A DNA stretch of 64,000 nt from Dehalococcoidia bacterium (GTDB lineage: Bacteria; Chloroflexota; Dehalococcoidia; GIF9; AB-539-J10): NCBI GenBank assembly GCA_030612025.1, contig JAUWOR010000002.1, positions 1 through 64,000 on the forward strand, given 5' to 3'. The notes beneath the pieces were generated by a model. That model was not told the DNA's origin. It made no database searches and saw only the letters and a list, made by a program, of their open reading frames with translations. How positions within the stretch are numbered: position 1 is the first letter of the stretch; the number at the start of each line of letters is the position of its first letter. Shown one piece after another: positions 8,909-34,840 of the stretch. Position numbers and translations under genes: made by a program.

Positions 8909-9415
8909 GTGATAAGCATAAAGGAAAAAGAGCAATTAAGTGAGACCTTATCCTCATATAGCAGGGAAAAGAGAAATTTAATCCCCTTATTGCAGGAATA
9001 TCAGACGAAACTGGGGTATCTTCCCAAGGAAGTGATGCAAGAGATTGCTGCTTCCTTGGGGATTCCCGAGGTTGAGGTCTACGGGGTTGCTACCTTCTAT
9101 AACCAATTTCGCTTTGTTCCCTTAGGAAAGCACCATACTAGGGTTTGTATGGGTACTGCCTGTCATCTAGCAGGGGGTAAGCTTGTCTTAGAAGCTTTAG
9201 AGAGGGAACTCGAGATTAAGGTAGGAGAGACTAGCGAGGATGGTGAGTTCAGCCTAGAGCGAGTCGCTTGCGTTGGTTGCTGTATGCTGGCTCCAGTAAT
9301 GCTCATAGGGGACGAGGTCCGCCCTAGAATGACACCGTTTAAAGTGGAGGAGGCTTTAGTACCTTATAAACAAGAAATCCAACAAGAGGGCTCAACCAAA
9401 GGGCAAGCTTCCTGA
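8909..9415 (+). CDS. NuoE/HydC-like [2Fe-2S] subunit
   Basis: VATFYNQF, VCMGTACH, VACVGCCMLAPV. Confidence 0.9.
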   Translation: MISIKEKEQLSETLSSYSREKRNLIPLLQEYQTKLGYLPKEVMQEIAASLGIPEVEVYGVATFYNQFRFVPLGKHHTRVCMGTACHLAGGKLVLEALERELEIKVGETSEDGEFSLERVACVGCCMLAPVMLIGDEVRPRMTPFKVEEALVPYKQEIQQEGSTKGQAS

Positions 9416-9441
9416 CAAGAGAACTCCAAGGGCATTGGTGA

Positions 9442-11331
9442 GTGACGTTTCAAGAACTGCAAAATAGGGCGAAATCCGAATGGGAGACCTTGCAAAACAG
9501 CACCCATATCCTTATTGGCACGGCTACTTGTGGTAGAGCAGCCGGAGCCTTAGCCACTCTTGAAGCTCTCGAAAAAGAACTGTCACGACAGAATATTGAG
9601 GTCAAGGTCATCCAAGTTGGCTGTATGGGATTGTGCTATGCCGAGCCTTTAGTTACTATATCCAAACCTGATTCTTTCCGCGTCGTCTACCACAATGTCA
9701 CCCCGGAGCTTGTTCCCCGCCTCATAGAGGGCTACATTATGAGCGATGACCCTTGTCTTGAGCTTGCCTTGGGTATCCTCGAAGGAGGTGAGGAAGAGGC
9801 CCCTTACATCCCAGAACTCCTTAGATTTGAACATGAACTTCGCCTCGTATTGCGCCGCTGCGGCTATATCGACCCCAAAAATATAAATCACTATATCGCT
9901 AATGGTGGATATAGCGGCCTGGAGAAAGCATTAAAGCTCCAACCTGAGGAGATAATTAAGGAAGTAAGAAAATCAGGGCTTCGCGGGCGAGGTGGTGCTG
10001 GATTTCCCACTGGACAAAAGTGGGAGCTTTGCCACAATGCTAAGGGAGAACCGAAGTATGTAGTATGTAACGCCGATGAGGGAGACCCAGGTGCATTTAT
10101 GGACCGAGTTGTTTTAGAGAGCGACCCACAGCAAGTTATAGAGGGAATGATTATTGCTGGCTATGCCATATCAGCCAAGCAAGGCTATGTCTATGTTCGC
10201 GCTGAATACCCTTTGGCTATTGAGTGTCTGCAAACTGCTTTAAATCAGGCCAAAGAAATGGGTTTTTTAGGGAATAATATCCTGGGCAGTGGCTTCAGTT
10301 TTCATATCGAGATAGCAAAGGGAGCAGGTGCTTTTGTCTCTGGTGAAGAGACAGCACTGATGGCCGCTGTCGAGGGGAAGATGAGCACACCCAGGCCAAG
10401 GCCACCTTATCCTGCTCAGGCTGGTTTGTGGGGTAAGCCAACCCTGCTGAATAATGTCAAGACCTTTGCTAATGTCCCTTTGATAATTCAACGAGGAGCA
10501 GATTGGTTTTCCTCCATCGGCACAGAGGGAAGTAAAGGAACAGCAGTGTTTACCTTAGCCGGCAAGATTAACAATGCTGGATTGGCTGAAGTGCCTATGG
10601 GCACAACGCTGCGTGAGCTTATTTATGACATCGGTGGCGGAATACCTAGAGATAAGGCATTTAAAGCAGTACAAATTGGTGGTCCCTCAGGAGGCTGTCT
10701 CCCCGAGAGCTTGCTTGATACCCCCATCGATTATGACTCTCTTCGCGAGGCTGGCTCGATGATGGGCTCAGGGGGCATGATTGTCATGGATGAGGATAAC
10801 TGTATTGTTGATGCGGCACGTTTTTTCCTCGATTTCACCACAAGGGAATCCTGTGGCAAGTGCACCATGGGTCGCTTAGGAACCTTGCAAATGCACGAAG
10901 CCCTTGAGGATATTGTAGCTGGCAATGGCAAAATCGAGGATCTTGACCTTCTCCTTGAGCTAGCTGAAGATGTCAAAGCTGGTTCACTGTGCGGTTTGGG
11001 GAGAACAGCACCTAACCCTGTCTTTACTACTATGCGCTACTTCCGAGATGAATACGAAGCCCATATCCTCGAGAAGCGTTGCCCAGCACTGGTCTGCTCT
11101 GAACTCATCGCCTATTATATTCTCCCCGATAAGTGTGATAGAGGCTGTGAGCATTGTGTGCTCACTTGCCCAACAGAAGCAATTAAAGGTGAGAAGGGAG
11201 AGATAAAAGTCATCGATCAAGAGAAGTGTTCCAAGTGTGGCACTTGCCTGGAGGTCTGCCCCCCAGAGTATAATGCAGTAGTAAAGTTATCGCCAATTAG
11301 TTTGCTTCCTTCTAAGGAAAAGAGCGAGTGA
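9442..11331 (+). CDS. NuoF/HydB-like FMN/NAD-binding subunit with N-terminal thioredoxin-like Fe-S domain and C-terminal 2x[4Fe-4S]
   Basis: GLRGRGGAGFPTG, NADEGDPGAFMDR, GEETAL, GGPSGGC, ESCGKCT, SLCGLG, C-terminal ferredoxin motifs. Confidence 0.92.
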   Translation: MTFQELQNRAKSEWETLQNSTHILIGTATCGRAAGALATLEALEKELSRQNIEVKVIQVGCMGLCYAEPLVTISKPDSFRVVYHNVTPELVPRLIEGYIMSDDPCLELALGILEGGEEEAPYIPELLRFEHELRLVLRRCGYIDPKNINHYIANGGYSGLEKALKLQPEEIIKEVRKSGLRGRGGAGFPTGQKWELCHNAKGEPKYVVCNADEGDPGAFMDRVVLESDPQQVIEGMIIAGYAISAKQGYVYVRAEYPLAIECLQTALNQAKEMGFLGNNILGSGFSFHIEIAKGAGAFVSGEETALMAAVEGKMSTPRPRPPYPAQAGLWGKPTLLNNVKTFANVPLIIQRGADWFSSIGTEGSKGTAVFTLAGKINNAGLAEVPMGTTLRELIYDIGGGIPRDKAFKAVQIGGPSGGCLPESLLDTPIDYDSLREAGSMMGSGGMIVMDEDNCIVDAARFFLDFTTRESCGKCTMGRLGTLQMHEALEDIVAGNGKIEDLDLLLELAEDVKAGSLCGLGRTAPNPVFTTMRYFRDEYEAHILEKRCPALVCSELIAYYILPDKCDRGCEHCVLTCPTEAIKGEKGEIKVIDQEKCSKCGTCLEVCPPEYNAVVKLSPISLLPSKEKSE

Positions 11332-24850: not shown

Positions 24851-26047
24851 ATGCCTATCTATTCTCATTCGCAGCTAAGTATGTATGAACAATGTCCCTT
24901 AAAGTACAAGCTTCGCTACCGGGACAGGATTAAACGGGACATTGAAGGCGTTGAGGGCTTCCTGGGCACGAGGGTTCATGATACTCTGAAGAAGTGTTAT
25001 GACAACCTCAGGTTTACCAGGATAAATAGCTTGAACGATTTGCGCGCCTACTATAATAAAATCTGGCAGGAGAACTGGCACGAATCAATCCTTATTATGA
25101 AGCAGGCCTTGACACGGGAAGACTACAGAGCCCTGGGTGAGAAGCTGATTAAAACTTACTATGAGCGCTATTCGCCCTTTGACTCGGATATGACCATAGG
25201 CACGGAGATGGGGCTCAATTTCTCCCTGGATGACGAGAACAAATACAGGATGACGGGCTACATAGACCGGCTGTCACGGGATAAAGATGATGTTTATCAA
25301 ATTCACGACTATAAGACATCAGCTCACCTGCCGAGCCAGGAAGACACAGACAATGACAGGCAGCTTGGCTTATACCATATTGGGATTCAGAAGAAGTGGC
25401 CAGATATTGAGAATATCAGGCTTATCTGGCACTACCTTGCTTTTGACAGAGAATTGGTTTCCTATCGTACCCCAGAAGCTATTTCAAATCTGATTCAAAA
25501 TACTAAGAGCTTAATTGACGAAATAGAGTCTGTTCGGGATTTCCCGCCATGTGAATCGCCCTTATGCGAATGGTGCGAGTATCCTGACCTCTGTCCGCTG
25601 AGAAAACATTTCATCAGGGTGGAAGCCCTACCTGTCAACGAGTATCTCAACGAGCCGGGAGTCGCGCTGGTTAACAAATATGTGGCTCTTAAGGATGAAG
25701 CGAAAAAGGTAGACCAGGAGACAGAGAAGGTAAAGGCGGCAATACTTGATTATGCTAGAAGAGAAGAGGTTGAAATCATAAAGGGCAGTGACTATAAAGC
25801 AAGGGTTAGATTTGATGAGAAACTAAGATTCCCGGGCAAGAATGATGAAGAGCGCCAGGAACTGGACGAGGTAATTAAGCAAGCAGGCAAATGGGCAGAG
25901 GTTTCCCAGCTTGATACCGCATCGCTCATCCGCGTCGTTGCGAACAATCTGTGGAACAAAGACTTAATTAATAAAGTCATGAAGTGCGGCAGAATTGAGG
26001 TGACCGATTCCATTCACATATCGAAATTAAAGGACAAGGAGAAGTAG
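24851..26047 (+). CDS. PD-(D/E)XK (RecB/Cas4-like) nuclease with probable Fe-S cysteines
   Basis: YSHSQL..YEQCP, GTRVH, GYIDRL, IHDYKT, QLGLY, CEWCEYPDLC. Confidence 0.88.
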   Translation: MPIYSHSQLSMYEQCPLKYKLRYRDRIKRDIEGVEGFLGTRVHDTLKKCYDNLRFTRINSLNDLRAYYNKIWQENWHESILIMKQALTREDYRALGEKLIKTYYERYSPFDSDMTIGTEMGLNFSLDDENKYRMTGYIDRLSRDKDDVYQIHDYKTSAHLPSQEDTDNDRQLGLYHIGIQKKWPDIENIRLIWHYLAFDRELVSYRTPEAISNLIQNTKSLIDEIESVRDFPPCESPLCEWCEYPDLCPLRKHFIRVEALPVNEYLNEPGVALVNKYVALKDEAKKVDQETEKVKAAILDYARREEVEIIKGSDYKARVRFDEKLRFPGKNDEERQELDEVIKQAGKWAEVSQLDTASLIRVVANNLWNKDLINKVMKCGRIEVTDSIHISKLKDKEK

Positions 26048-26130
26048 GGGATATAGGCTCAGGCAAGGAGCGGTGAAACCACGCAGGTTGACTGGCCCGA
26101 CAAGAGGTGTCCATCCACAGGCCTCTTCTT

Positions 26131-26596
26131 TGTCATTGCGAGCCAAAGGCGTGGCAATCTCACTTCGCAGCGGGGGTTTATCTCCGCCTGTACCTCACCA
26201 GATAAGGGGACGGGCGGACGAGGGCACCCTTTTGGTTGGGGACGAGCCCCAACCCCACAAGATTGCTTCGTCGCTTATGCTCCTCGCAATGACAGGAAGG
26301 AAGCGCTCCCCGCGATGATAGAAAGGAGGCATCCACCGCGATGACAGGAAAGGCGGCAATGATAAGAGGGAAAGCTATGTGTCATTGAGCATACGAATGA
26401 GTACACTCGCTTGCTGTGTAGGAGCTATCAGCGTAAAATCCTGCTTATAGAGGGGTAAAGAAATGGAGCAGGTGAAGTTAGAGGAACTTCCTAAGGAGAC
26501 CTTGATAGAATTGGCAAGAATGTATGCTCGAAACTGGCAAACTTTAGATGGGCTGTGGTTTCGAAACGTTGAAGCCCAATACGGGCTTGAAGCTGC
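26131..26596 (+). repeat. Direct repeat copy 1 (repeat cluster + promoter + first 45 codons of a DUF6125 gene)
   Basis: Aligns with 34067-34455 with scattered substitutions and indels; contains TTGCTG-17-TAAAAT (26411-26439). Confidence 0.9.
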
Positions 26597-27401
26597 CGAA
26601 GCTAAAATACAATCTTTCATTGAGATGCTGGGCAATGATGCCAGGCTGCTAACGGAAGGCGAAGAAATCAAGTCGCATGACCTCTTTACCCGCCTGACCT
26701 CAAAGAAAACCATCACCGGTGAAGACGAAACCGAACAGAGCGAGTTGAAGTACTTACAGGTTATCCGAAATATCCGCGATAACGAACCGCATTTATTTGA
26801 AAAGATTAAACGCCTGCCTAAAAAAGCTCGTACTGCCAGAACTAACGAAAACAAAGATAATACTCTGCTTACCTACTTCCGCAAGGGCAAGCTGCAAAAA
26901 TTCTATCTTTCACAAAATCAGTCAACTCGAGAATCAGATTTCTTCTCCACCGCCAGGCAACTCGAAGTGGATAAAGACACCCAACGCCAGTCTATCCCCC
27001 AGGATTATTACGACCTGTTAGACATGAACAAGAAAGCATTCCAATTAGCTACTACCGAAGAGGCGCCGGTGACAAAAATGAAAGGCGGCCGGGATACTGC
27101 TACCTTCGTGCTTAAATTCCTGAAGTCCAATCAAATTAAACACTTCCAGGGTTATACCGAGGGTGATGAGCTTTACATCAAACAGGTCATTAAACTCATA
27201 GAGGAGGGAGGTCTGCCTAAACAAACCACCAAAACGCTGCAAAAAGAATTGAGCGAAGAGCTAAACCCGATAAGAATACTGGGGATACTGAAAAAGAATA
27301 TTCCCTCAGAGTTTTTCAAAGAGCCCGTGGCTGAGGGTGCCGCTCAAACTTCGGGCCCCAGAGAGGTAATCCTTTCCGAATACCTCATAAGCACACAATA
27401 G
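26463..27401 (+). pseudogene. Chimeric ORF: DUF6125 N-terminus fused in frame to the C-terminal tail of a probable RM-associated helicase
   Basis: Residues 1-45 match 34322..34840; after LEAA the sequence (EAKIQSFIEMLGNDARLL...RLPKKARTAR...REVILSEYL) resembles, from memory, the tail of PLD/SNF2 helicases that precede Eco57I-like methyltransferases; no helicase motifs remain. Confidence 0.7.
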
Positions 27402-27406
27402 TAATA

Positions 27407-27895
27407 ATGAAGAAACATCAAAACAATTATGCTTTCATCGATGGACAGAATCTCAACCTATCCATACAGGAGTTGGGGTGGAAACTGGATTTCAGAAAAT
27501 TCAGAATCTATTTGAGTGAAAAATATAGTGTCGGCACAGCATACTATTTTATTGGCTTCGTTGAAGGGAACAATGACTTATATGTCTCGCTTCAATCAGC
27601 AGGATATATTCTGATTTTCAAGCCAACACTTAAATTACCAAATGAAAAAGTGAAAGGTACCGTCGATGCCGAACTGGTATTACAAGCAATGATTGATCTG
27701 AACAAATACCAACAAGCGATAATTGTAACCGGTGACGGCGACTTTGCGTGTCTGGCTGCATACCTGCGCAAGGCAGATAAACTGCAATGCGTATTAGTCC
27801 CAAACATAAATAAATATTCCGCTTTACTGAAAAAAGCGGCTCAAAAACGCATCGCCTTTATGAATGATTTAAAGAAAAAATTGGAGTATAAATGA
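27407..27895 (+). CDS. NYN (LabA/DUF88, PIN-like) domain ribonuclease
   Basis: AFIDGQNL, KGTVDAELV, IVTGDGDF, YSALL acidic-site motifs. Confidence 0.9.
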   Translation: MKKHQNNYAFIDGQNLNLSIQELGWKLDFRKFRIYLSEKYSVGTAYYFIGFVEGNNDLYVSLQSAGYILIFKPTLKLPNEKVKGTVDAELVLQAMIDLNKYQQAIIVTGDGDFACLAAYLRKADKLQCVLVPNINKYSALLKKAAQKRIAFMNDLKKKLEYK

Positions 27896-27946
27896 AAAGA
27901 ACCCTATAAGGACAGAACCTTATAGAGGTCTTTCCGTCGTGATTCT
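27896..27946 (-). ncRNA. Candidate small structured RNA convergent on the NYN gene
   Basis: Lies directly downstream of a minus-strand promoter; long stem ending in a U-run; 5' GACGGAA complementary to loop UUCUGUC; wobble pairs work only on the minus strand. Confidence 0.5.
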
Positions 27947-27952
27947 AGTATA

Positions 27953-27980
27953 AGTATAACAGATACATATATTTTGTCAA
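27953..27980 (-). promoter_or_regulatory. Near-consensus antisense sigma70 promoter
   Basis: Minus strand TTGACA (27980-75) -16 nt- TATACT (27958-53) with extended -10 TG. Confidence 0.7.
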
Positions 27981-27993
27981 ATAGGTTGTTTGC

Positions 27994-30900
27994 ATGGATA
28001 AACAAGCCGCCGCAAAAATCATCAGGGATACTTTTGAAAAACCCTTTGACAAGGGACGATTTATCACCTTTAGTAAAAACCTCGTCAATTATCTGGACGA
28101 CTCAAAGAACTTTACTTATCGAGGGAATATTATCCCCGATGCCTACGAGCCATATATCCATACCCTTGAGCGGATAGGCAAATATCAGGATGCCAATGAC
28201 AACAAGATAGACATCCTCATCGCCCAGCTCAAAAAGGAAACTTCCCTTGAGCATGCCCGCACCATGCAAAGAAATTTTATTGCCTGGTATCTCAACGGCA
28301 GCCGTGGCGGCGACCTTAAAGATGCTGCCCTTGTCGCTTTTGTCTCTCCCGATTCAGAAGACTGGCGCTTTTCCCTGGTAAAAATGGATTACCTCCTTGA
28401 AGAATCGCCCAGCGGAAAGACAAAAGTAAAAACAGAACTCACCCCTGCTCGCAGGTTTTCCTTCCTGGTCGGTGTGAATGAAAGCAGCCATACCGCACAG
28501 AGCCAATTAGTCGATATTCTGGCAGATGATAGAAATAATCCCACGCTCCCTACTTTGCAAAATGCCTTCAATATTGAGGTAGCCACCAAAGAATTCTTTA
28601 ATAGGTATCGCGACCTTCTCTACAAAGTTAATGAAGAACTTGATAAGCTAGTTGCCAGGGATAAGACTATCAGCCAGGAATTTGATGATAACGGCATAGA
28701 TACCATCAATTTCGCCAAGAAACTGCTCGGGCAGATTGTCTTCCTGTATTTCTTGCAAAAGAAAGGATGGCTTGGAGTCCCGGAAAATAAAAACTGGGGC
28801 CAAGGCGCTAGAAAATTCCTGCGGAATCTGTTTGAAAGGTGTAGACGAGAAAAGCGGAATTTCTTTAATGACTACCTGGAATTTTTATTTTATGATGCCC
28901 TAAACAGACAGGACAGAGGTGGCATTGACCCTAGTTACTATCACAGATTTGACTGCCGTATCCCATTTCTAAACGGAGGTTTGTTCAACAGCGATTACGA
29001 CTGGGTTAAAACGGACATCGTCATCCCAAATGATATTTTCTCCAACCGCAAGACTGCCAGTGATGAAGGTAGTGGCATTCTGGATATCTTTGACCTCTAC
29101 AATTTCACCGTTAAGGAAGACGAGCCGTTAGAAAAAGAAGTGGCAGTTGACCCAGAAATGCTGGGCAAGGTTTTTGAGAACCTTCTGGAGGTTAAAGCCC
29201 GTAAGTCCAAAGGTACCTATTATACCCCTCGTGAGATTGTTCATTATATGTGCCAGGAGAGCCTCATTAACTACCTGGATACCGTAATTAACACTGGCGA
29301 TGTTCCATTGGTACATACTCCTCCGCCTCAAGGAAAATTGCTCGGAAAGCCAGACCCCCAACAAGCAGCGTTGAAAACTCCTCAATACAGAGTTCTAGTC
29401 CCTCGGGAAGATATCGAAGAGTTCGTTCGTAAGGGTGAATCTACCATTGAGCATGATAGCCGAGTCGAGAGTCATGGTAAAGAAACCGAGCGCTATTCCT
29501 ACAAACTTCCCGAAAGCATCCGTCACAATGTGAAATTGGTTGACGAAGAACTAGCCAATATCCGTGTCTGCGACCCTGCAGTCGGCTCTGGGGCATTTCT
29601 AGTCGGCATGATGATGGAAGTTGTCCGCGCCAGAAATACGCTTACCACATACTTAGCAGATAAGGAAGGTAGAACCAACTACAACTTCAAGCGCCATGCT
29701 ATTCAAAATTGCCTTTACGGAGTGGACATAGACCCCGGCGCAGTAGAGATTGCCAAGCTCCGGCTCTGGCTTTCACTGGTAGTTGATGAAGAAGATATCA
29801 GGCAAATTCAGCCTTTGCCAAACCTGGACTACAAGATCGTCTGTGGCAACTCGCTTCTGGGTGTGGAGAAAAACTTATTCAATCTGGAGCTATTCAATAA
29901 CCTCGAGAATTTGAAATCACTCTACTTCAACGAAACCAACACCAAGAGGAAGCAGGAATACAGGAGCCAAATTGATGACTTAATCAGACAGATTACAAAC
30001 GACAACGAGAACTTCGATTTTGAAGTGTACTTTTCTGAAATCTTCCACGGAGATAATAAAGGCTTTGATGTGGTGATTGCCAATCCACCATATATTGAAG
30101 CACGGGGAATACAACAAAAGCATGTAGACACATATAGGAGGTTATTCAAGACTGCCGGTAATAGAGTTAACACTTTTGCTTTCTTTGTGGAAAAAGGAAT
30201 AGAACTTCTGAATAATGAGAGAATTCTTTCTTTCATCATCCATAGAAATTCAATACGTTCAAATGATTATAGGAAACTTAGGAAGTTCATACTTGATAAT
30301 ACCAAAATCAAGAACATCTTGAGTTTTAAAATCGGAGTCTTTGAGGAGGTGACTGGTGAGGTGGTAGTTTTGGTTCTACAGAAAACCAAGAATAATCAAG
30401 GAAATACAATTAAAGTGGATTTCCTGAATAATACTATTACTCAAGAATTTAACTATACACTTCTTGAGCAAGACGTGTTTAATAATCTTCCTGACTACAG
30501 ATTCAATATTTATCTGAATCGTTCACGGATACAAGTGTTAGACAATATGAATAAGCATCATAGGCTTGAAGAATTTGCTGACGTTAAGCAAGGTATTATC
30601 GTTGGTAATGAGAAGAAATATATCAAGACATATCAACAATCTTCTAAATACAAACCAATCCTTAGAGGTAAGAACGTATCTAAGTATAGGATAAATTTCC
30701 AAGGTGAATATTTATATTATGTCACTGGAACAAGAATATTAACGAGAGGTAAGACGAAGGACTTATTCGAAATTCCTGAAAAAATTCTAACGCAGCATGT
30801 ATCTTCAAAGATTGTAGCAGCATTGGATACTAACAACTATTATTATCTTCAAACAATTAATGGGATAACCAGCAAAAAGGAAACCATTACAAATAGGTAT

Positions 30901-31218
30901 TTGCTAGCCTTGTTAAACTCCACACTCATGAACTTTTATTATGAGTATACTTTTAATATAGGAGCAGAATTCACAACAGCAGTGGCAATCGAGAATCTTA
31001 ATAAATTACCTTTTAAGGAAATCTCTCGATCTGCACAACAACCATTCATTGACCTAGTTGACAAAATCCTCGCTATCACCAAAGCTGAAGACTATCTTGC
31101 CAATCCCACCAAGCAAGCCAAGGTCAAAGAATACGAACGCCAGATTGACCAGATGGTGTATCAGCTCTACGACCTCACGCCCGATGAAATTGTAGTGGTG
31201 GAGGGCTCCATAAAATAA
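27994..31218 (+). CDS. Eco57I/TaqI-like amino-methyltransferase with C-terminal target-recognition domain (type IIG-like)
   Basis: PFLNGGLF, DPEMLGKVFENLL, GTYYTPRE, DPAVGSGAF (motif I), YGVDID, DVVIANPPY (motif IV), TaqI_C-like region, IDQMVYQLYDLT tail. Confidence 0.93.
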   Translation: MDKQAAAKIIRDTFEKPFDKGRFITFSKNLVNYLDDSKNFTYRGNIIPDAYEPYIHTLERIGKYQDANDNKIDILIAQLKKETSLEHARTMQRNFIAWYLNGSRGGDLKDAALVAFVSPDSEDWRFSLVKMDYLLEESPSGKTKVKTELTPARRFSFLVGVNESSHTAQSQLVDILADDRNNPTLPTLQNAFNIEVATKEFFNRYRDLLYKVNEELDKLVARDKTISQEFDDNGIDTINFAKKLLGQIVFLYFLQKKGWLGVPENKNWGQGARKFLRNLFERCRREKRNFFNDYLEFLFYDALNRQDRGGIDPSYYHRFDCRIPFLNGGLFNSDYDWVKTDIVIPNDIFSNRKTASDEGSGILDIFDLYNFTVKEDEPLEKEVAVDPEMLGKVFENLLEVKARKSKGTYYTPREIVHYMCQESLINYLDTVINTGDVPLVHTPPPQGKLLGKPDPQQAALKTPQYRVLVPREDIEEFVRKGESTIEHDSRVESHGKETERYSYKLPESIRHNVKLVDEELANIRVCDPAVGSGAFLVGMMMEVVRARNTLTTYLADKEGRTNYNFKRHAIQNCLYGVDIDPGAVEIAKLRLWLSLVVDEEDIRQIQPLPNLDYKIVCGNSLLGVEKNLFNLELFNNLENLKSLYFNETNTKRKQEYRSQIDDLIRQITNDNENFDFEVYFSEIFHGDNKGFDVVIANPPYIEARGIQQKHVDTYRRLFKTAGNRVNTFAFFVEKGIELLNNERILSFIIHRNSIRSNDYRKLRKFILDNTKIKNILSFKIGVFEEVTGEVVVLVLQKTKNNQGNTIKVDFLNNTITQEFNYTLLEQDVFNNLPDYRFNIYLNRSRIQVLDNMNKHHRLEEFADVKQGIIVGNEKKYIKTYQQSSKYKPILRGKNVSKYRINFQGEYLYYVTGTRILTRGKTKDLFEIPEKILTQHVSSKIVAALDTNNYYYLQTINGITSKKETITNRYLLALLNSTLMNFYYEYTFNIGAEFTTAVAIENLNKLPFKEISRSAQQPFIDLVDKILAITKAEDYLANPTKQAKVKEYERQIDQMVYQLYDLTPDEIVVVEGSIK
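31133..31218 (+). repeat. Methyltransferase 3'-tail repeat, copy 1 (native gene end)
   Basis: Encodes ERQIDQMVYQLYDLTPDEIVVVEGSIK*. Confidence 0.9.
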
Positions 31219-31219
31219 C

Positions 31220-31681
31220 ATGGAAGCAAATACTTACAATAAGTACAAAATAAAAATATCTGATTTGAAATTCGTATGTATTGAAGCCAATGGAGAACAA
31301 GGAAAGGGATTCGTATACCCAGATATATCGGATAAATTGCCCAAATTATACGTCGTCAAACACCGTAAAGAAATTTACTATGTTGGAATTACTTCTCAAG
31401 ACATCAGAAAGCGCCTGAGGTATGGCTTCTCAACTCAGGGTAAGCATGGTTATCATGGATACAAATGGAAGAACAAGAATGCAGCCGATCTATTAATCTG
31501 GAGCTTTCCTGACAGCACTCAAGAACATGTGGAAGCGATAGAAGCAGAGCTGGTTTATTTTATCAGGGAAAAAACCGGTAAATGGCCAAAATACCAGATG
31601 GAAATTCACTTTCATGGAGCATCAGAAACCGAGAGACAAGTTGCCAAATCTATACTCAGCAGATGTTTAAACGGAGTTTAG
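31220..31681 (+). CDS. GIY-YIG-like nuclease
   Basis: KLYVVK...YYVGITSQDIRKRL and a later EAIEAELV; starts 1 nt after the methyltransferase stop. Confidence 0.7.
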   Translation: MEANTYNKYKIKISDLKFVCIEANGEQGKGFVYPDISDKLPKLYVVKHRKEIYYVGITSQDIRKRLRYGFSTQGKHGYHGYKWKNKNAADLLIWSFPDSTQEHVEAIEAELVYFIREKTGKWPKYQMEIHFHGASETERQVAKSILSRCLNGV

Positions 31682-31691
31682 GTTTAGAAAA

Positions 31692-32906
31692 ATGAGTAGG
31701 TCACCAGAACTCAGATTTGATATTAGTTTCTACAATGACGAACATCGAGCTATATTGATGAGACACAAGTATGCTGCCCGCATAAAGCAACTGGTGGATT
31801 CTGGCCTGAGCGTAAAAGAAAAAGAATTCCAGGTATATGCCATGTTCACCGAGCAAGATGGCCGTCCCAGGTTCCGTAATTACTCAGAACTGAAAAGAAA
31901 GGTGCCAGGCAGAATAAAGTTACTTAAGGATTACATTGACACCAAGAACGGCACCGTGCGCTCTTTAGTCCAACCCGGGAAAAACCAGGTTACCGAAAGG
32001 GTTGGTGTAGCCTCTGCATTATTAGTAATGAATAAAGTATTTGGTTTGCACCGCGCCGATTGGGAGCGTATTCCGGAAACCAGTAAACGCAAAACTATGG
32101 ATTTCCAGCTTGCTTCCGATGGCAATGACTTCATATTAGTTGAAGCCAAAGGAACTGCTTTTGAGACCGGTAATTTGCATCGGGATGCAGATTTGGAGCG
32201 ACATATTAAGGAAAAGAAAAAGGCTCATCTAGCGGAAAATGCCAACCTTACATCACTTTTTGGTGTCATCACAGGTATTCCTTGCGAATTAGAGAAAACT
32301 GCTCAATGTCTATTGTTAGACCCTCTTTTTGAGAATATCAGAATGGACGCGGCAAAATATCAGCTATTAGCTCGCTTATATTTCTATTCTCGGATACTGA
32401 GAGTAATTTCACGTGGTCAGTTGGTCAGGGCACTTCTTAATCGCATTGCTGTTTTAAAAAGAGCCAGCAACTATACTGAATTCGACAAGCTCCCATTAGT
32501 AGACATATACGGAGAGCCAATAGCCCCACCGCCTGAGAATACTTCATCAATATGGAACAAGACCGTCGTAAAAGATAAGATAATTGGGCAAATGTTCCCT
32601 GTGAGTAAAACTGATTTTGTCTATTATGCACTTGATATGGACATATATCGTCTAATGGTGGAGCAGAATTTTGAGGCTATCCGCAAGTTCAGCTCAACGC
32701 TAGACGAGCAGTTTATTGAGAATGTAACCTATGATAATGCGATAGTTGACGTTCGAGATTTGCAGGAATATGGCATTCCTTATGAATCATTTGAGAAATT
32801 TGACGAAGCAAACAAAGTCATTATCGCTCTTACTGGCAGTGTAAATTATAGTCTGTCAGGGCAAGTGATTGGTTTTTTTAGGTTGCCAGAGAGGACATTG
32901 CCATAA
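31692..32906 (+). CDS. Hypothetical protein with PD-(D/E)XK-like nuclease motif
   Basis: TE.VG...MDFQL...ILVEAKGT; no family recognised. Confidence 0.55.
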   Translation: MSRSPELRFDISFYNDEHRAILMRHKYAARIKQLVDSGLSVKEKEFQVYAMFTEQDGRPRFRNYSELKRKVPGRIKLLKDYIDTKNGTVRSLVQPGKNQVTERVGVASALLVMNKVFGLHRADWERIPETSKRKTMDFQLASDGNDFILVEAKGTAFETGNLHRDADLERHIKEKKKAHLAENANLTSLFGVITGIPCELEKTAQCLLLDPLFENIRMDAAKYQLLARLYFYSRILRVISRGQLVRALLNRIAVLKRASNYTEFDKLPLVDIYGEPIAPPPENTSSIWNKTVVKDKIIGQMFPVSKTDFVYYALDMDIYRLMVEQNFEAIRKFSSTLDEQFIENVTYDNAIVDVRDLQEYGIPYESFEKFDEANKVIIALTGSVNYSLSGQVIGFFRLPERTLP

Positions 32907-32956
32907 ATATTGGCGTTTTATTATGTTTTTCTTTGAAGTCGTAATTCTTGTTTGCC

Positions 32957-33031
32957 CAGACTGACTAGATGGTTTATAAGCTGTATGGGCTAACGCCGGA
33001 AGAGATTGCGGTAGAGGGTAAGTTGAAATAG
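32957..33031 (+). repeat. Methyltransferase 3'-tail repeat, copy 2 (degenerate)
   Basis: Translates QTD*MVYKLYGLTPEEIAVEGKLK*. Confidence 0.85.
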
Positions 33032-33057
33032 ACAATACATAAAAGATAGGAGGAGCT

Positions 33058-33624
33058 ATGCGTTATCTAAATAACTCAGAACTATCCCAGTTCCACGACG
33101 CTTTGTTGAAAATGTTCCAAAAGCACGCCACCAATGTAGGTAAAAAGGATTGGGGACATCCGCACGGGATAGACTATTGTGACACCTACTCATTCAATAC
33201 TAAATATGGTACTTTGCGTATAGGTCACGAAGATTACGTACAGGAGGAGCGCTGGTGGATACCGATAGAGTTGAAAAAACAAGTTCCCAGTGATCAATTG
33301 TCAATCGCCTTTGAAATGAACATACCAAAAACAAGGAATATGCGTCTTGCAGTTCACTACGCAATTGACGAGAATAATATCGTCCATATACTTCATAAAG
33401 GGAAATTCACGGTTGGGCATGGCAGTGTGAGTATGTCCGAGTTTTTTAATTACTACCGAAAAATTCCTAGCAAATGGCAACTCATCAATTTTTACAGCTA
33501 TGACTATTTGGAGCTTGGGAGAGTTAACCTGATTTTAACCGATACCGAGTTCGTCCAATTGCTTGACTCGCTGGCTGAATTTGCTAGATACATCCCAAAA
33601 TTTAAGAGCATTTATAGGGAATGA
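33058..33624 (+). CDS. Hypothetical protein
   Basis: 188-aa ORF with strong RBS (AGGAGG); no family recognised. Confidence 0.65.
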   Translation: MRYLNNSELSQFHDALLKMFQKHATNVGKKDWGHPHGIDYCDTYSFNTKYGTLRIGHEDYVQEERWWIPIELKKQVPSDQLSIAFEMNIPKTRNMRLAVHYAIDENNIVHILHKGKFTVGHGSVSMSEFFNYYRKIPSKWQLINFYSYDYLELGRVNLILTDTEFVQLLDSLAEFARYIPKFKSIYRE

Positions 33625-33630
33625 AATAAA

Positions 33631-33717
33631 AACGAACGCCAAATTGACCAGATGGTTTATCAGCTCTACGACTTCACGGCCGAGGAGATTGCGGTGGTGG
33701 AGGGCATGAATAAATAG
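33631..33717 (+). repeat. Methyltransferase 3'-tail repeat, copy 3
   Basis: Translates NERQIDQMVYQLYDFTAEEIAVVEGMNK*. Confidence 0.9.
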
Positions 33718-34066
33718 TAGATTCCCTCCGTTAGTGAAGGGCAGTAATTAATTCGAATTTGCGTAATCCGATAGCTTGAGATGCCTGGCCAAGGGCTTAA
33801 ACTCATCTGCAAATGAAGCATTGTCCCAGTAGTACAAAGCTATAGTCAGAGATTACTACGATACCTGGTGCTTTCTTGACACCTTACTGCACTTTTTAGC
33901 GCTCTGTGCAATCTACCGAAGAACGCCTTTGGAAGAGAATCCCACCGGCAAGCTAATCTGATCTCGTTCAGATAGATAGAGGACACTTTAAAGTATAAGG
34001 ACATCTTCTGCTCTAAACTTGGAACAGGTCCTCGCAGCTCTTTGTGTCCTTACGAACCTCCCCTAT

Positions 34067-34455
34067 TGTCATTGCGAGCCAAAGGCGCAGCAGTCCGTTC
34101 CTGAGATTGCTTCGTCGATTAGCTTCCTCGCAATGACAGGAAGGAGTGATTGGGGACGAGCCCCAACCCTACGAGATTGCTTCGTCGCTTACGCTCCTCG
34201 CAATGACAGGAAAGGCAGCAATGATAAGAAAGGAAGTTATGTGTCACTGATTATACTAATGAGTACACTCCCTTGCTGTGTAGAAGCTATCAGCGTAAAA
34301 TCTGCTTATAGGGGGTAAAAATTGAAGCAAGTGAAGCTAGAGGAACTTCCTAAGGAGACCTTGATAGAATTAGCCAGAATGTATGCTCGAAACTGGCAAA
34401 CCTTAGACGGGCTGTGGTTTCGAAACGTTGAAGCCCAATACGGGCTTGAAGCAGC
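34067..34455 (+). repeat. Direct repeat copy 2 (repeat cluster + promoter + 5' end of the intact DUF6125 gene)
   Basis: Aligns with 26131-26596; TTGCTG-17-TAAAAT at 34273-34301. Confidence 0.9.
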
Positions 34456-34840
34456 GGTCAAGCTAGATTTAAAGAATTGGGAAAGGCAATCCGTGGTAGA
34501 AGCAGAAAGGATTAAGAAAATACTTAACTTAACCAAGGGTGGGCTTCCCTCTGTTCTCAAAGTTTTAAGTCTTATGAGCTGGCAACTTGTCTCCCCAATC
34601 TTTGACCTTGAGGAGGAAAGTCCCCAGAAAATCGTCTTTTATTACCCTCGCTGCCCCGTTCAGGAAGGCAGGAAGAGGCAGGGTAAACAGGAATTTCCTT
34701 GCAAGACCATGAAACTAACCCTCCTATCCAATCTCGCCAAGGTAGTTGAACCCAAGGCAGCAGTGAAATGCCTTATATGCCCCCCCGACCCTCACCCTGA
34801 CAAGTTCTGGTGCAAATGGGAACTTACTATGAAGGAATAA
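34322..34840 (+). CDS. DUF6125 family protein (intact)
   Basis: NWQTLDGLWF..VE..YGLEAA, CPVQEGRKR.G..EFPCK, CLICPPDPHP..FWC.W. Confidence 0.8.
   Translation: MKQVKLEELPKETLIELARMYARNWQTLDGLWFRNVEAQYGLEAAVKLDLKNWERQSVVEAERIKKILNLTKGGLPSVLKVLSLMSWQLVSPIFDLEEESPQKIVFYYPRCPVQEGRKRQGKQEFPCKTMKLTLLSNLAKVVEPKAAVKCLICPPDPHPDKFWCKWELTMKE

Follow-up and report, generated by a model that had tools for sequence, protein, structure and literature searches.

The conserved 3′ end of a type IIG restriction-methyltransferase gene appears, from sequence comparisons, to mark a recurrent recombination joint in many bacterial phyla. It is described here from a stretch of 64,000 nucleotides (nt) of Dehalococcoidia DNA (the window), whose positions serve as coordinates throughout; L-numbers denote homologous loci, and X1, X3 and X5 are public metagenome runs represented by their Logan contigs. 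In the window, the end of such a gene recurs twice further downstream as free-standing orphan tails, and other genes (the cargo) lie between the tails. These orphan tails are probably relics of serial, homology-driven recombination at the conserved 3′ end of the type IIG gene. The gene and its array are ordered as follows (lengths of proteins in amino acids, aa):

27994-31218, + strand: type IIG restriction-methyltransferase of 1074 aa, whose target-recognition domain is variable and whose C-terminal tail is conserved
31135-31218, + strand: tail1, the C-terminus of the live methyltransferase (last 28 codons), ERQIDQMVYQLYDLTPDEIVVVEGSIK*
31220-31681, + strand: GIY-YIG nuclease-domain gene (PF01541), 153 aa, the first cargo gene
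31692-32906, + strand: 404-aa gene of a small uncharacterised family with 32 homologues
32957-33031, + strand: tail2, a decayed orphan with an in-frame TAG and one codon lost, QTD*MVYKLYGLTPEEIAVEGKLK*
33058-33624, + strand: 188-aa gene of a conserved family with 79 homologues
33634-33717, + strand: tail3, an intact orphan that starts 10 nt past the stop of the 188-aa gene, ERQIDQMVYQLYDFTAEEIAVVEGMNK*

The product of 27994-31218 is a type IIG enzyme, uniting an Eco57I-type gamma-class N6-adenine methyltransferase and a TaqI_C-type recognition domain in one large polypeptide. It matches Eco57I (1.5e-36), TaqI_C (1.3e-21) and N6_Mtase in Pfam, and the PADLOC model REase_MTase_IIG (PDLC03596) over residues 1-840 (1.9e-262). 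Both orphans were detected with a profile that represents the final 34 residues of 67 homologous enzymes; the scores were 26.9 bits (E 7.6e-08) for tail2 and 40.9 bits (E 3.2e-12) for tail3. The coordinates and readings of a preliminary description of the window, which had reported the tail as recurring twice in this layout, are confirmed. At the nucleotide level, tail1 and tail3 agree at 70/84 positions (84% over 88 nt in a separate alignment), whilst tail2 agrees with them at 42/57 and 43/57 positions respectively. When the 1.4-Mb genome was scanned in all six frames with a loose motif, the three tail copies and one true C-terminus on contig C15 were returned, and nothing else. The latter belongs to a second type IIG-like gene (C15 9687-12530, − strand; a 948-aa frame, 23% identical over 609 residues), which ends in a similar tail and has no orphan copies.

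The differences between the tails are synonymous or lead to residues common in the family, for example K and G in YKLYGLT. Neutral decay was simulated by randomly mutating tail1, with 8 changes per 72 nt (as for tail3) or 15 per 57 nt (as for tail2), in 2000 trials each. The profile score of tail3 or tail2 was retained in 0/2000 trials in each case, which rules out a recent duplication in place followed by neutral decay. As the preliminary description had proposed, the tails look like the ends of different functional alleles. These allele-like differences do not discriminate between the models considered below, because later allelic exchange of the live tail gives the same picture. Tail3 can also be read in frame with the TGA of the 188-aa gene (33622-33717). 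A single fusion of the two was considered and rejected: the homologues of the 188-aa protein are nearly all 186-191 aa long and tail-less, and the one 222-aa form has an unrelated extension.

Independent Logan contigs span the array. X1 covers 31149-34201 with 0 differences, X3 covers 31128-33384 and 33359-34234, and a 4540-nt contig of X5, which comes from a different study, covers 31090-33718 at 98.3% identity. The layout is therefore not an assembly artefact of this metagenome-assembled genome, and the misassembly of several strains that the preliminary description had allowed for is set aside. Moreover, X5 contains a natural breakpoint. Its near-identity to the window extends from 45 nt before tail1 through tail3; over 29245-30049 the identity is 84%, and across the recognition domain the two cannot be aligned at 85%. 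This pattern indicates that the same cargo array has been joined to a different enzyme allele, the breakpoint being where the conserved end starts. X1 and X3 likewise have contigs that end or begin at 31119-31149, which may hint at a branch in the assembly graph at this point. Skips of ~8 kb between 26159 and 34173 were disregarded as joints, because their sides are just 21-35 nt long and lie inside high-copy sequence of the repetitive extragenic palindrome or miniature inverted-repeat transposable element type (REP/MITE).

Homologous loci were then screened for orphan tails. A homologue scan with one genome per species gave 590 stretches encoding relatives of the enzyme, of which the best 80 (40-65% identity, many phyla) were fetched with their flanks, making 81 loci with the window. 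Across these, the 34-residue profile gave 70 matches at enzyme ends and 19 elsewhere, and all 19 extra matches lay downstream and on the gene's own strand. No orphan tail was found by this profile in 602 kb of upstream sequence, and none on the opposite strand. Two of the 19 (L068, L076) proved to be those genes' own ends. A longer profile (124 positions, from the last 120 residues) recovered 17 orphans in 11 loci, to which the short profile adds one in L017. Orphan tails, in 17-18 copies, are thus present in 12 of the 65 loci with at least 1 kb of downstream sequence, the window included. This polarity of the repeats supports the recombination reading, and it supplies the enrichment behind type IIG genes that had been expected from the window.

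The stubs have a consistent structure. They end at the natural gene end (positions 120-123 of the 124 in the long profile), whilst their starts vary between positions 58 and 99, giving lengths of 25-66 codons. No catalytic or recognition-domain sequence was kept in any orphan stub in the profile comparisons of the array loci. It is very improbable, in our estimation, that tandem full-length methyltransferase genes lost their bodies by deletion and left the orphans behind. Longer stubs of the kind this would produce are known (residues 971-1074 in L083; ~66 residues in L028 and L083), but it would need many independent deletions, each sparing the last 25-66 codons and the adjacent cargo, and no orphan retains anything of the catalytic or recognition domains. 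For the same reason, and because the intervening open reading frames (ORFs) belong to unrelated families, the idea that the orphans are silent recognition-domain cassettes was rejected. Some tail units are nearly empty, as in L059 and L082. L015 contains three copies of the tail with its 3′ flank in tandem (9390-9698), at a spacing of 123 nt and with no gene between them.

The genes lying between tails differ from locus to locus, and all cargo ORFs of the arrays share the orientation of the enzyme. In the loci other than the window, the cargo includes:

L007: a DUF1016/YhcG nuclease
L017: an ORF6N protein
L020 and L039: a PHP-plus-ATPase protein
L028: two toxin-antitoxin-like pairs
L034 and L039: an unknown protein of 307/309 aa
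L055: a HipA-like kinase and a partner
L067: a Fic protein
L077: an AAA_13 ATPase, a Hypoth_Ymh protein and an AlbA_2/HATPase_c_4 protein

The slot occupied by a given gene also varies: the 307/309-aa gene comes first in L034 and second in L039, whilst the PHP-ATPase gene comes first in both L020 and L039. Tails therefore delimit variable genes, which was one of the expectations raised by the window. The longest array seen is that of L077 (13151-18715), with four tails enclosing the AAA_13/PDC-S06 ATPase, the Hypoth_Ymh protein, the AlbA_2/HATPase_c_4 protein and a small ORF. Eight of the ten array-cargo proteins tested matched PADLOC models of defence or candidate defence genes at E ≤ 1e-5 (PDC-S02, PDC-S05, PDC-S06, Ppl, PDC-M66A, PD-Lambda-3_B and Argonaute-associated), the PDC-S02, PDC-S05 and PDC-S06 matches coming from the cargo of L007, L017 and L077. 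In contrast, none of the three cargo genes of the window (GIY-YIG, 404-aa and 188-aa) has a PADLOC match, so the view that the arrays collect candidate defence genes holds elsewhere and not for the window's own cargo. None of these three genes occurs among the 80 fetched loci. A GIY-YIG homing endonuclease as the general cause of the arrays is not supported, since the cargo of the other 11 arrays is unrelated and the window's cargo is absent from the 80 loci.

Two lines of evidence suggest that a tail and the gene after it travel together. Firstly, L034 13152-13947 is collinear with L039 16338-17133, from the tail through the 307/309-aa cargo gene, at 71% nucleotide identity, whilst the distance from that gene to the next tail differs. 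Secondly, the 188-aa gene was followed through metagenomes, where a scan gave 27 loci, 22 of them informative in that the gene is preceded by 150 nt or more. Nine of these 22 have a tail whose end precedes the gene by 37-49 nt (45 nt in the window), and two others have one 318-370 nt upstream. In several cases the tail at 37-49 nt terminates a type IIG gene that shares only ~28% identity with that of the window (L086 and L087, both full length, and L081, L089 and L092). Because this tail so often belongs to such a gene, the 188-aa gene is a native downstream neighbour of another type IIG family, and tail2 with the 188-aa gene a piece of such a locus. In L083, a stub of 104 codons, covering residues 971-1074 at 50% identity to the enzyme of the window, precedes the 188-aa gene and itself sits behind a different full-length enzyme. 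These comparisons support the unit of tail plus downstream gene, as first proposed from the window, as the co-inherited one.

A tail after the 188-aa gene was found among the metagenome loci in L082 only. There the junction 3′ of the gene is identical to that of the window, with the stop codon, ten bases and a tail that begins at the same codon, and the left limit of the tail before the gene is also common to both. The 188-aa proteins are 65% identical and the anchoring enzymes ~28%. To the left of the block, the window has the 404-aa gene and L082 an empty tail unit, and the methyltransferases and upstream neighbours differ. Since the junctions are shared while the surroundings differ, two different arrays hold the same tail-gene-tail block, which has either moved or had all the sequence upstream of it replaced. 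The junction (window 33622-33717; L082 6559-6654) is better conserved than the 188-aa gene itself, at 65% protein identity. In L100 (6061-7147), the C-terminal fragment of a 188-aa homologue has, ~150 nt further downstream, an ORF whose first ~30 residues resemble the GIY-YIG protein of the window. No methyltransferase or tail lies near this stretch, which is probably a decayed remnant of a similar island.

The 188-aa loci also bear on another explanation, in which insertion with long target duplication, a poorly understood process that copies a stretch of target tens to hundreds of bases long, placed each cargo block in the tail in a separate event, so that the tails are target duplications made in place. 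Such insertions are known from restriction-modification genes of types I-IV, where the repeats measure 46 to ~420 bp and mobility genes are absent (PMC2853133, in the cases it presents), and the whole island of the window is itself bounded by such a repeat (see below). However, no tail was detected after the 188-aa gene in 7 of the 9 loci with a tail 37-49 nt before it (L084 and L085 having well under 1.5 kb of downstream sequence), and in those 7 the gene just sits behind a full-length gene. Moreover, the tails differ in the manner of functional alleles and not of decayed twins, although later allelic exchange could mimic this. We therefore regard separate insertions of this kind as unlikely.

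The recombination reading would work as follows. The body of the type IIG gene is conserved and its target-recognition domain hypervariable, whilst a short segment at the C-terminus is kept from allele to allele and even between type IIG families. As this tail is the sole patch of homology 3′ of the variable domain, exchanges between alleles or families would resolve there. Incoming DNA from another restriction locus would bring a gene end, its tail and its downstream neighbour, and would recombine at the tail, pushing the resident tail and its neighbour downstream. Repeated events would build a co-oriented array of live gene and tail, cargo, old tail, older cargo and oldest tail. Cargo with a tail on either side could from then on enter, leave or change place as a block through ordinary homologous recombination, with no dedicated recombinase. 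The locus-variable cargo, the collinear units of tail and gene, the junctions shared with L082 and the break in X5 just 5′ of tail1 support this scheme, and the recombination anchor envisaged in the preliminary description is largely borne out. We infer homologous recombination as the agent; the intermediate might be linear or circular, and stacking may have been selected for defence. A stronger version, in which tail-flanked genes form a recombinase-free pool of cassettes, is possible but doubtful. In it, homologous recombination alone would carry any such gene as a block from one type IIG locus to an unrelated one and from phylum to phylum, and the tail would be a universal docking site through which restriction genes collect and exchange accessory defence genes.

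Several points weigh against recombination at the tail. Recombination was not observed directly, and among the 15 of 58 contig joints that were listed none was tail-to-tail. The patch of homology is short (~60-90 nt) and the copies are now 74-84% identical, which would make it a poor substrate for RecA unless donor and recipient were once closer. The first tail-cargo-tail unit would still require an illegitimate join. There is no tail nearby in 11 of the 22 informative 188-aa loci. The 5′ limits of the stubs are loosely clustered at profile positions 91-95 (8/21 stubs), so some site preference remains conceivable. Lastly, weak tyrosine-recombinase matches (two queries only) lie 5-6 kb from the arrays of L017 and L059.

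The last two points favour a different origin, in which small integrative or cis-mobilisable elements, inserted at the 3′ end of the gene by a site-specific recombinase encoded elsewhere, left the tails as scars of their attachment sites, in the manner of tandem island accretion at tRNA and tmRNA genes or of integron cassettes. Elements of this kind are classically recognised by direct repeats of a gene's 3′ end that share one orientation and bracket foreign genes. Against this, the 3 matches to PF00589 in the whole genome lie on contigs C16, C8 and C12; the 181-kb contig of the window (C5) has none. By tblastn with two of these tyrosine recombinases as queries, a search of low sensitivity, matches were found in 6 of the 81 loci, and 10 of the 12 array loci had none in the fetched flanks. 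There is no fixed crossover core, the 5′ limits of the stubs being spread over 40 codons. As single-stranded DNA, tails 1 and 3 folded no better than shuffled sequences on either strand (z 0.28 to 0.60); among these values are 0.40 for tail1 and 0.60 for tail3, and tail2 alone stood out, on the + strand, at z −3.08. An origin of the tails as attachment scars is thus decidedly improbable. The comparison with integrons drawn when the window was first described survives as a loose analogy only, given the lack of an integrase on the contig, the unstructured tails 1 and 3 and the variable 5′ limits.

We give almost no credence to the suggestion that the orphans are kept for a function in place, as translation-coupling mini-ORFs or regulatory RNA. 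In its favour, tail3 and most of the orphans in L028, L034 and L077 have an open and conserved reading, and a GGAGG within the tail stands 16 nt before the start of the GIY-YIG gene. On the other hand, tail2 carries a stop and a deletion, several orphans in L007, L020 and L039 have internal stops, and the M that starts the mini-ORF is L in many relatives. Promoter-like and terminator-like sites occur at chance level (16 against 14.4 and 6 against 5.5 respectively). Coupling of translation through the ATG mini-ORFs, as initially proposed, is not upheld, the 188-aa gene having an AGGAGG of its own.

The array lies within an island of 7.7 kb (26597-34306), the G+C content of which is 0.33-0.46, against 0.46-0.50 in the flanks. 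Its boundaries and the genes upstream of the methyltransferase are:

26130-26596, + strand: left bounding direct repeat; its final 149 nt (26448-26596) hold the start region of a DUF6125 gene with its first 45 codons, and the rest is REP/MITE-like high-copy sequence
26463-27401, + strand: fusion ORF of 312 aa, in which the 45 duplicated DUF6125 start codons are in frame with the C-terminal end of a partner gene
27407-27895, + strand: NYN-domain gene (NYN 4.8e-15), between the remnant of the partner gene and the methyltransferase
34066-34455, + strand: right bounding direct repeat, running into the intact DUF6125 gene (34322-34840)

The island is bounded by a long direct repeat, since the 45 DUF6125 codons and the sequence preceding them recur at 34307-34455. 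The two copies of this segment (D1, 26448-26596 against 34307-34455) are 91% identical, and the other repeat segments, D4, D2 and D7, 88%, 94% and 90% identical respectively. The intact DUF6125 gene covers the whole profile (4.3e-43), and the fusion ORF matches it on residues 8-45 only. The island is shorter than 20 kb, its direct repeats are at least 149 nt long and its contig has no integrase, and thus it has the hallmarks of insertion with long target duplication (repeats over 30 bp, no mobility genes). Word depth in four metagenome runs reaches thousands at 25834-26501 and 33850-34517, as for high-copy repeats of the REP/MITE type.

Residues 43-310 of the fusion ORF match DNA directly upstream of the methyltransferase in most of the 80 loci. 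In L030 the partner gene is full, encoding 1062 aa with PLDc_2, SNF2-rel_dom and Helicase_C domains. As the match is to the end of the partner, this PLD-nuclease/SNF2-helicase gene is truncated in the window, where just the last ~270 codons are left. The restriction arm is probably dead while the methyltransferase ORF is intact, and with its partner truncated the system may do no more than methylate. Because the island is repeat-bounded and the helicase-nuclease partner truncated, the locus is probably a partly decayed restriction system. The window thus holds a mosaic, partly decayed restriction island, and the interest lies in the general pattern that it exemplifies.

Amongst known systems, the arrays behind type IIG genes seem close to the model of Rhs C-terminal displacement. 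In that model, as Jackson et al. (2009, PMC2935791) outline it, laterally acquired pieces are incorporated by homologous recombination, circular intermediates are proposed and arrays of dissociated tips result. As in the Rhs arrays of that account, behind a full-length gene stand orphan 3′ fragments in the same orientation, each retaining a conserved piece and having a downstream gene of its own. In the same comparison, the displaced piece in Rhs is the variable toxin tip with its immunity gene, whereas here it is the conserved tail only, of 25-66 codons. The host gene here is also a restriction-methyltransferase, unlike the Rhs genes described there, and the riders are unrelated accessory genes, often defence candidates, across many phyla.

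Like integrons, the arrays consist of co-oriented, promoterless-looking cassettes stacked behind a fixed point, with the same cassette in different arrays and slots. Unlike integrons, the repeat is coding sequence of the anchor gene, and no integrase, attC-like hairpin or fixed crossover was found. Orphan cdiA-CT/cdiI modules of contact-dependent inhibition (CDI) systems resemble Rhs arrays. Work by Nobusato et al. from 2000 is reportedly a source on insertion with long target duplication and on replacement of target-recognition domains within type IIG genes. Accessory defence genes inside or beside restriction-like systems are well documented; their route of arrival is not.

Foreign genes at restriction loci, in the cases presented by Furuta, Abe and Kobayashi (2010, PMC2853133), arrived by insertion with long target duplication and lie between direct repeats of more than 30 bp with no mobility gene; the repeat that bounds the window's island resembles these. 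In each of those cases a whole restriction system was inserted once, into an unrelated target, whereas here serial arrays with non-restriction cargo stand at one gene end. Defence genes embedded in BREX, DISARM, type I restriction-modification and Hma systems have been reported (10.1101/2024.01.29.577857), and cargo families are common to those in the parts of that report compared and to the arrays here (PDC-S02, PDC-S05, PDC-S06), accessory genes that accompany restriction-like systems. The main text of that report contains neither "recombination" nor "type IIG" (0 occurrences each) and describes no tail repeats or mechanism of accretion. Our literature search found no publication on tail arrays behind type IIG genes; the supplements of PMC2853133 (Figure S7 cases) and of 10.1101/2024.01.29.577857 lay outside this search and could hold such cases.

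If the recombination reading is true, a recombinase-free joint at a short, conserved coding gene end, used repeatedly in many phyla to add and swap adjacent genes, would be a concrete and testable mechanism for building defence islands. Moreover, orphan tails could serve as a cheap search key that marks the borders of recently acquired genes, many of them of unknown function. The 188-aa family, with a confident model and no known fold, and the nuclease-like 404-aa family are examples.

With respect to the individual genes of the window, G+C content is lowest within the island at 30000-30999 (0.334), in the recognition-domain part of the methyltransferase gene, the rest of which is at 0.44-0.46; this would fit a separately acquired domain. 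The GIY-YIG gene begins with an ATG 1 nt past the methyltransferase stop. Its match to PF01541 is barely over threshold (4.5e-05, 24.1 bits against a cut-off of 22.6), and its protein has 272 homologues of ~151 aa. The 404-aa gene was found in 0 of 400 other genomes of the phylum searched. Its protein has no Pfam match and no Foldseek match at E ≤ 0.001, and structural comparison gave weak nuclease-fold matches only (Z ≤ 5.5), with PD-(D/E)XK exonucleases at Z 5.2 and 4.8. Residues D137, E151 and K153 are invariant in 22 sequences of the family, and the protein probably has a putative PD-(D/E)XK nuclease core, as judged from its sequence and predicted model.

The 188-aa gene ends at its own stop, given that its 79 homologues are nearly all 186-191 aa long. 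Its protein has no match in Pfam, NCBIfam or PADLOC, and against the PDB it gave no Foldseek match at E ≤ 0.001 and a best Z of 5.2 in a wide VIA-align comparison. The predicted model is confident (pLDDT 91, pTM 0.88) and consists of a helix, a long curved sheet and a helix. Lastly, the NYN-domain gene upstream of the methyltransferase occupies the equivalent position in L004, L011, L055 and L078, and is cut in L041.

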